From: Escherichia coli
GTDB taxonomy: Bacteria; Pseudomonadota; Gammaproteobacteria; Enterobacterales; Enterobacteriaceae
NCBI RefSeq assembly: GCF_045037415.1
Contig: NZ_CP173438.1
DNA length: 64,000 nucleotides
Direction: 5' to 3' (one strand)
How positions within the stretch are numbered: the first letter of the stretch is position 1; every line of letters starts with the position of its first letter. Shown in pieces: positions 55,457 through 56,907 of the stretch. A model generated the notes under the pieces. It was given only the letters and a program-made list of their open reading frames with translations. It did not search any database and was not told the DNA's origin. Position numbers and translations under genes: made by a program.

Positions 55457-55642
55457 TCAACTAAACAACATCGCGATTTTGCCGAGAGCATAACCTATCA
55501 CCAGCACCGTTAAACTGATTTTGATAATGCTGGTAATGCTCTGTGGTTTTTCATCCTCATCATTTATTTCTTCATGGTTTTCAGGTGTTGGCTCATCGAC
55601 ATCTTCATCCTCCGGCTCGAGCTTCACTTTCGTCAACAGCAT
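55457..55642 (-). pseudogene. Acidic linker plus C-terminal transmembrane anchor, probably the displaced 3' end of djlC
   Basis: 61 codons; ATG overlaps the djlC stop by 11 nt in a different frame; encodes an acidic stretch then TM helix [27 protein letters not shown]. Confidence 0.5.
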
Positions 55643-56907
55643 TCGGGTGATAATGGTTCTAATGGATGTGCCTCTCCGCGTTCCAGCCGCGCGTCCAGAC
55701 GGGCCAGCATCTCTTGTTTCGGAAACGCTTCAAGTACTACCTGTTCCGCTACCCGATACAAATCCAGTAACGGTGAATCTTGCTCTGTCTCGCTACCGAC
55801 TCTCGATTTCCACCACGCCCATGCTTTGCGTTTGAAGAATAACGACTCAATAAACGATTGACCTAACGGCGATAATTTTCCGCTATGTAAAATCTCCGCC
55901 CATAACAGCCGCGTCCGGGCGCTCTCACCAGGAACATATTTCAACGGCTTACCTTGCGCATCTACCATGCTCCGCGCTTCGATAACCATCACTAATAACG
56001 CGAAATAATCCGGGCAATGACGCTTGCTCCACTGCAACAACAAATTATCGGCTTGTGTAGATGGGTAACTTTCCCGGTACGCGCAGAGATCGGCAAGCAG
56101 GCTTTCCCCCTCGCCGCAGTACAACCGTTGTGCGCACTGGTAATAACGGGCATCTTCGCTTTCTGGTTCTTCCGCTTGCCACTGTTGAGCGACAGGAATG
56201 AGTTCCGCCATACCTGTTTGCACCGAGCTGTACCAGCGCAACAGTTTGCGATGCAACTTCGCATCATCAGGAATGAACCACGGACCTTCCATCGCCAAAA
56301 ACGCAGTGACATAGTCAGGATGGTAACGGCAGCAACGTTCCAGCGAGAAGTAATACTCAACCGTCTGGTTCTGCAACGCAACGGGATATTCCAGAAGGCT
56401 AAGGAAATCGAAACAATCACCAGCCTGAATGGCCTCAAGAAAAGCCTCCCTTTCTTCCTCATCTATTCCTTCGCAGTCATTAAACGAATGCCAGTTCAAA
56501 CGCTCTGCCAGCAAAGAAGCACAATTTAATGAAAGATATCGCGCTTCTATAGCGATTGCACACAGCGGCCAGCGTAATTGATCGACATCCTCCATGTTCC
56601 AGGTATTTAATTGCTGAATAAATTTCTGCCAGGCGGAGGGCTGAAAACGATCATTTTCTGAATCCAGTAATGCCCTGAATACACGTAGTATTTCATGCTC
56701 AGTGGCAGCATCTTTTTCTTCATCATCTGCTTCCTCGACAGGATTTACCGCCAGTCGCAGCGCCTCTTCATAGGCCTGGCGTAATGCTTTAAACCCTTGT
56801 GGATCGGTTTCGGGATGACATAACGGTAAGCGAGCAAGATAAGCCTGGCGGATAATGTCTATTTGCGTCGTGCTTTCAATTTCGAGGATTTGCCAACATG
56901 TTTTCAT
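55633..56907 (-). CDS. djlC: DjlC-like HscC co-chaperone, lacking an in-frame membrane anchor
   Basis: 424 aa; N-terminal J-like region; ATGA overlap with upstream ybeU stop; 424 + 61 codons approximates the 483 aa I recall for DjlC. Confidence 0.7.

Follow-up and report, generated by a model that had tools for sequence, protein, structure and literature searches.

The split of djlC in the 64-kb stretch of Escherichia coli DNA analyzed here (hereafter, the window) is very probably a consensus error induced by DNA modification rather than a mutation in the bacterium. Under the mechanism that we propose, the Eco31I system of an ST131-type strain would place m5C within GGT(m5C)TC and, on the opposite strand, m6A within GAG(m6A)CC. 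In signal-based long reads, most plausibly nanopore reads, a modified base not modelled by the basecaller or polisher would shift the signal, and at a fraction of Eco31I sites the consensus would lose the methylated C or gain an adjoining T. One such miscall would have deleted a C at 55657/55658, so that djlC falls into a body of 424 codons and a tail of 61, and another would have added a T at 45004, breaking corC. The real genome would then encode an intact 483-codon djlC, specifying a tail-anchored J-domain co-chaperone of HscC, and would produce neither a soluble J-protein nor a free anchor peptide. We infer that nanopore data are probably the source of the error, and likewise infer the signal-level mechanism.

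We favor this reading because the two indels of the window and the two indels found over ~177 kb of a second assembly, Esc28, all fall on the cytosine spot of an Eco31I site, and because the djlC deletion is absent from other complete genomes and the recurrence of the corC insertion conflicts with phylogeny. It is further favored because the corC site coincides with the end of a read-derived contig (SRR34090864_41), because another assembly (SRR30949409) presents an insertion at the same djlC position, and because restoring a single C yields exactly the ST131 DjlC protein.

The original prediction placed the J-protein body and its tail anchor in different frames, and the list of open reading frames bears this out: a 424-codon frame ending in PLSPECC-stop is followed, in another frame, by a 61-codon frame that encodes an acidic stretch and then a hydrophobic transmembrane helix, as had been described. 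The corresponding features are:

55633 to 56907, minus strand: 5' part of djlC, 424 codons plus stop, with residues 1-417 equal to those of ST131 DjlC (WP_001295869.1) and the last seven (PLSPECC) out of frame.
55457 to 55642, minus strand: 61-codon open reading frame in the other frame, equal to DjlC residues 423-483 and comprising the acidic linker and the tail-anchor helix.
55655 to 55660, plus strand: damaged Eco31I site in djlC, located in the alignments, where the reference GGTCTC reads GGT-TCT.
55550 to 55618, minus strand: acidic linker, with 14 D/E within a 29-residue stretch.
55463 to 55537, minus strand: predicted C-terminal transmembrane helix (tail anchor), with a Kyte-Doolittle maximum of 1.99 over 19 residues.

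The window was aligned to its closest complete genomes (ST131 strain S4, 99.9%) and to K-12 MG1655. These alignments reveal that one base is missing from djlC between 55657 and 55658. On the plus strand, the reference sequence GGTCTCTAATGG corresponds to GGT-TCTAATGG in the window, and on the coding strand both S4 and K-12 present TTAGAGACC where the window reads TTAGA-ACC (GGTCTCT versus GGT-TCT on the plus strand), so that the deletion can be placed solely as the loss of the fourth base of GGTCTC. The proposal of a 1-nt deletion near cccgaatgctg was hence right as to the kind of lesion and wrong as to its place: the base is missing 16 nt ahead of the start codon (ATG) of the small open reading frame. 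Similarly, the ATG said to lie 11 nt before the stop does overlap the end of the longer frame, at a different distance: it occupies 55642-55640 and starts 7 nt ahead of the TGA at 55635-55633, with the two open reading frames overlapping by 10 nt.

As given, the djlC frame of the window is broken 66 codons from its end. The 424-aa product consists of native DjlC residues 1-417 and seven out-of-frame residues, the frame change having removed five native residues (TIITR) and introduced seven foreign ones. Reinsertion of one C generates a 483-aa protein identical to WP_001295869.1. The reference DjlC proteins of ST131 and K-12 are both 483 aa long and hold the two pieces of the window in one frame; the K-12 gene has one extra base at the lesion and a single 483-aa frame, and neither S4 nor K-12 DjlC ends at SPECC, both running on through the anchor. 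The length of 483 aa and the C-terminal membrane anchor given for DjlC in the original prediction agree with these reference proteins and with the literature. No Shine-Dalgarno-like sequence was found upstream of the 61-codon open reading frame, its ATG being preceded by ACCATTATCACCCGA.

Over all 64 kb, the window presents three differences from ST131 strain EC958: a SNP at 28996, the additional T at 45004 and the missing C at 55657/8. The SNP (A in the window, G in EC958) lies in a gene encoding an SLC13 family permease and is the sole substitution; since 53 complete genomes have the window allele, the SNP truly marks a subclade of ST131. The additional T affects the following features:

44473 to 45352, plus strand: corC, split by the T added at 45004 into open reading frames of 181 and 124 aa.
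45001 to 45007, plus strand: second damaged Eco31I site, where the reference GGTCTC reads GGTTCTC.

Both indels of the window therefore sit at the junction between the third and fourth bases (T and C) of GGTCTC, giving GGT[T]CTC in corC and GGT[-]TCT in djlC, and the T gained in corC is directly 5' of the methylated cytosine. The equivalent stretch of EC958 contains eight GGTCTC/GAGACC sites, six of which are intact in the window, and the chance of two random indels both falling on that spot of such sites is about 6e-8 to 8e-7. The corC insertion is probably also an artefact. Homopolymer-type errors, as produced by 454, Ion Torrent or older nanopore chemistries, were considered and set aside: there are no homopolymer differences from EC958 in the 64 kb, and errors of this type would leave the coincidence with the motif unexplained.

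The motif at both lesions is the recognition site of the Eco31I/EcoMI type IIS system of ST131, and every indel that we observed coincides specifically with its m5C position. EC958 has an Eco31I system whose methyltransferases match the original ones at 100% identity (Forde et al. 2015, PMC4659465). M1.EcoMI generates GAG(m6A)CC, with 100% of the GAGACC sites of EC958 methylated at adenine, and M2.EcoMI/M2.Eco31I is predicted to generate GGT(m5C)TC (PMC4659465); the base lost in djlC is the m5C target of the latter. The genes encoding the system are located on GI-leuX and are present in ST131 clades A and C, whereas clade B and one strain of clade C lack them (PMC4659465). They lie outside the window, and their presence in its strain would be expected from the 100% identity of the window to clade C ST131. 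In the EC958 RefSeq record, the Eco31I locus was not found at the start of the sequence, and the old locus-tag numbering does not correspond.

Errors in nanopore-only assemblies (Lohde et al. 2024, PMC11610573; Liu et al. 2024, PMC11610603) resemble the lesions of the window in that they affect a strain-specific methylation motif at some of its copies only, recur independently and create false alleles or pseudogenes. These published methylation-induced errors are mostly substitutions (R/Y ambiguities, C2T/G2A; PMC11610573, PMC11610603), whereas the lesions of the window are 1-nt indels at GGT(m5C)TC, and a literature search for GGTCTC/GAGACC in connection with sequencing errors, nanopore errors included, returned no report. 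The predominance of substitutions and the lack of a report for this motif count against an artefact. So does the fact that only 2/8 sites in the window and 2/16 in Esc28 (12-25%) are hit, with no clear rule in the flanking sequence.

The distribution of the two lesions among other genomes was then compared. An 81-nt junction probe matched the ST131-type allele in 565 genomes, each of which has the extra base, and the djlC deletion was detected in 0 of 5,426 complete E. coli genomes. The exact 424-aa product was matched by one record among ~15 billion proteins, a Logan contig from run SRR34090864. The corC insertion occurs in only one other genome, Esc28 (NZ_OZ369436.1), in which corC is annotated as a pseudogene by NCBI. 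At 28996, Esc28 agrees with EC958, and the corC insertion is found in 0/53 of the genomes that have the window allele. All four combinations of the insertion and the SNP exist, indicating that the insertion arose more than once, which fits a recurrent artefact.

Across ~177 kb, Esc28 differs from EC958 by two indels and one SNP, and both indels are at Eco31I sites. Besides the corC insertion, the fourth base of GGTCTC is deleted upstream of sdhC (EC958 ~765064; CCAGGTCTCCGG to CCAGGT-TCCGG), a change private to Esc28, and all other Eco31I sites of the 16 in this region are intact. In its tRNA-Lys array, whose genes are almost identical to one another, Esc28 shows a change from GGTTCGAATCC to GGTTTGAATCC that affects the T-loop region of one gene and could be a real SNP or the product of repeat collapse or consensus error.

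The djlC deletion is carried by the 44,409-nt Logan contig SRR34090864_41. As computed from the reported ranges (forward orientation, 626 nt past the fetched locus), the end of this contig falls at ~45007 of the window, where the GGTTCTC heptamer of corC has its final base. Its other end is 4 nt from an RTACN4GTG (EcoMIII) site, a motif that occurs 9 times per 50 kb and is another ST131-specific methylation motif (Forde et al. 2015, PMC4659465), and both ends are in unique sequence. Breaks at methylated motifs are what heterogeneous reads at those positions would give, whereas a clonal short-read k-mer assembly would not be expected to break there. The contig differs from the window at one base, a synonymous change in lnt (window 45805).

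Among the public contigs with a separately called 61-aa tail, further lesions were found at or next to the same djlC site. An independent, noisy assembly with several homopolymer deletions, SRR30949409, has one nucleotide inserted at the very position of the deletion (GAG[C]ACC). The clean-looking Logan contig of ERR5984741, which extends through corC to tRNA-Gln repeats, lacks an A immediately 5' of the djlC GAGACC and shows the same split into 424-aa and 61-aa products. In GCA_034139185.1, GAGACC is replaced by GAAACC, that is, by a C to T change at the Eco31I m5C. Such a change is the classical signature of m5C deamination, and the djlC Eco31I cytosine accordingly looks like a real hot spot for substitution; deamination was rejected as the cause of the split, given that it yields C to T changes and not indels.

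Genuine disruption of djlC does occur in other E. coli. At least 27 public contigs in which djlC is disrupted upstream have the 61-aa tail annotated as a gene of its own. The gene is interrupted by IS1 in strain AVS0542 (NZ_CP124487.1) and frameshifted by a CCC to CC homopolymer change in two related NCBI assemblies, and in three further assemblies its upstream part has been replaced by Mu-like or other phage DNA, or by other DNA. In addition, a 379-aa form of DjlC is annotated in REL606-type genomes, on >1000 contigs. These genuine pseudogenes share with the window the same 61-aa tail open reading frame, called a "hypothetical protein", and differ from it in the lesion, which is IS1, CCC to CC or replacement by phage or other DNA.

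The main competitor to a consensus error is a real, strain-private 1-nt deletion that makes djlC a pseudogene, leaving a soluble DjlC(1-417) with seven added residues and no anchor, and at most traces of the 61-residue peptide. That the deletion is also present in an independently assembled contig derived from reads, and that djlC is genuinely disrupted elsewhere and seems dispensable enough for this, counts against an artefact and for this explanation, which is also favored by the different 1-nt deletion adjoining the same motif in the clean-looking contig of ERR5984741. A real deletion nonetheless fails to explain why the only two indels of 64 kb are both on the Eco31I methylated cytosine, why the corC insertion appears in a different sublineage and why the other indel of Esc28 repeats this lesion at a third site. 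Furthermore, the site is not a homopolymer, the usual place of real 1-nt indels, and 0/5,426 complete genomes share the deletion. We therefore regard a real deletion as unlikely. Were it real, the product would lack the transmembrane domain needed for membrane targeting and would be cytosolic, and the 61-codon open reading frame, having no Shine-Dalgarno sequence, would be made only by weak reinitiation at the overlapping ATG. The soluble truncated J-protein and separately translated tail peptide envisaged in the original prediction thus find no support: the deleted base is the Eco31I methylated cytosine, the deletion is unshared by other complete genomes and the small frame has no Shine-Dalgarno sequence.

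The coincidence with the motif would be accounted for if Eco31I sites were true indel hot spots in ST131, with the flipped or methylated M2.Eco31I cytosine being lost or duplicated during replication or repair. Three distinct indel sites in two assemblies, all at the same base of the motif, and the C to T change of the same cytosine in GCA_034139185.1 are in line with this idea, under which djlC would yield a soluble anchor-less J-protein, corC would be inactivated and a restriction-modification system would be generating frameshift mutations at specific sites. To our knowledge, no such mutagenesis has been described for C5-methyltransferases. Moreover, hundreds of complete ST131 genomes have intact sites, and 12-25% of sites hit in strains that otherwise show 0-1 SNP per 64-177 kb would imply an absurd indel rate, with many genes wrecked, while the end of SRR34090864_41 in corC suggests mixed reads and not a fixed change. 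We consider such a hot spot very improbable. Even less credible is a functional split, in which programmed ribosomal frameshifting or a two-gene arrangement would provide soluble and anchored forms of DjlC. The 10-nt overlap of the two open reading frames could in principle permit coupling, but all other genomes have a single 483-codon frame, the junction CCATTAGAACCATT contains no slippery heptamer (X XXY YYZ), no Shine-Dalgarno sequence precedes the ATG, and the frame change exchanges TIITR for seven foreign residues. Lack of conservation effectively refutes this explanation.

With a modification-induced consensus error as the preferred reading, the split of djlC is most likely not real biology. 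Its biological weight is small in any event: djlC is an ordinary, already characterized gene, and a dispensable co-chaperone would, if truly truncated, simply add to the list of private pseudogenes. The observation carries a warning for ST131-type assemblies, in which 1-nt indels at GGTCTC can give rise to false pseudogenes, such as those of djlC and corC, and to false allelic differences. A frameshift at GGTCTC in a long-read assembly of ST131 should be confirmed orthogonally, by short reads or methylation-aware re-calling, before it is interpreted.

An NCBIfam search of the 424-aa, 61-aa and restored 483-aa proteins gave no hit, and Pfam DnaJ matched residues 4-47 only weakly (E=0.036); the identification consequently rests on near-identity to an annotated and characterized DjlC. 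The restored protein shares 461/483 residues (95%) with K-12 DjlC, without gaps. Its J-domain motif reads HPE and not HPD, as does that of K-12 DjlC, and the divergent J domain is a trait of all DjlC proteins. A scan of the restored protein beyond residue 417 places its hydropathy peak of 1.99 in the C-terminal ~25 residues. K-12 DjlC (YbeV), a tail-anchored J-domain co-chaperone of the Hsp70 HscC, has in common with the restored protein a C-terminal acidic stretch and a single transmembrane domain. According to a passage of PMC6794478 citing Peschke et al. 2018, DjlC is a bona fide tail-anchored membrane protein whose transmembrane domain is both required and sufficient for targeting.

The region surrounding djlC is the gltJKL-rihA-hscC / djlC-ybeU-ybeT neighborhood of E. 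coli and has the same arrangement as in K-12, with ybeU-djlC converging on hscC-rihA-gltL. The genes flanking djlC are:

53727 to 55397, plus strand: hscC, encoding the Hsp70 partner of DjlC; intact (556 aa), converging on djlC and without differences from EC958.
56904 to 57611, minus strand: ybeU (DUF1266), overlapping the start of djlC in an operon arrangement as in K-12.

In the 59-nt spacer between the converging stops of hscC and djlC (55398-55456), a REP-like palindrome, ccggatgcggcgtaaacgctgcatccgg, precedes an A-run and is probably a bidirectional terminator. On the other side of ybeU, between ybeL and ybeT, where K-12 has ybeQ-ybeR-djlB-ybeT, the window retains only ybeQ and remnants of the djlB side. 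Both djlB and ybeR are absent from the window (~57640-59000), as they are from other ST131 genomes, which leaves DjlC as the sole HscC J-protein in this lineage.
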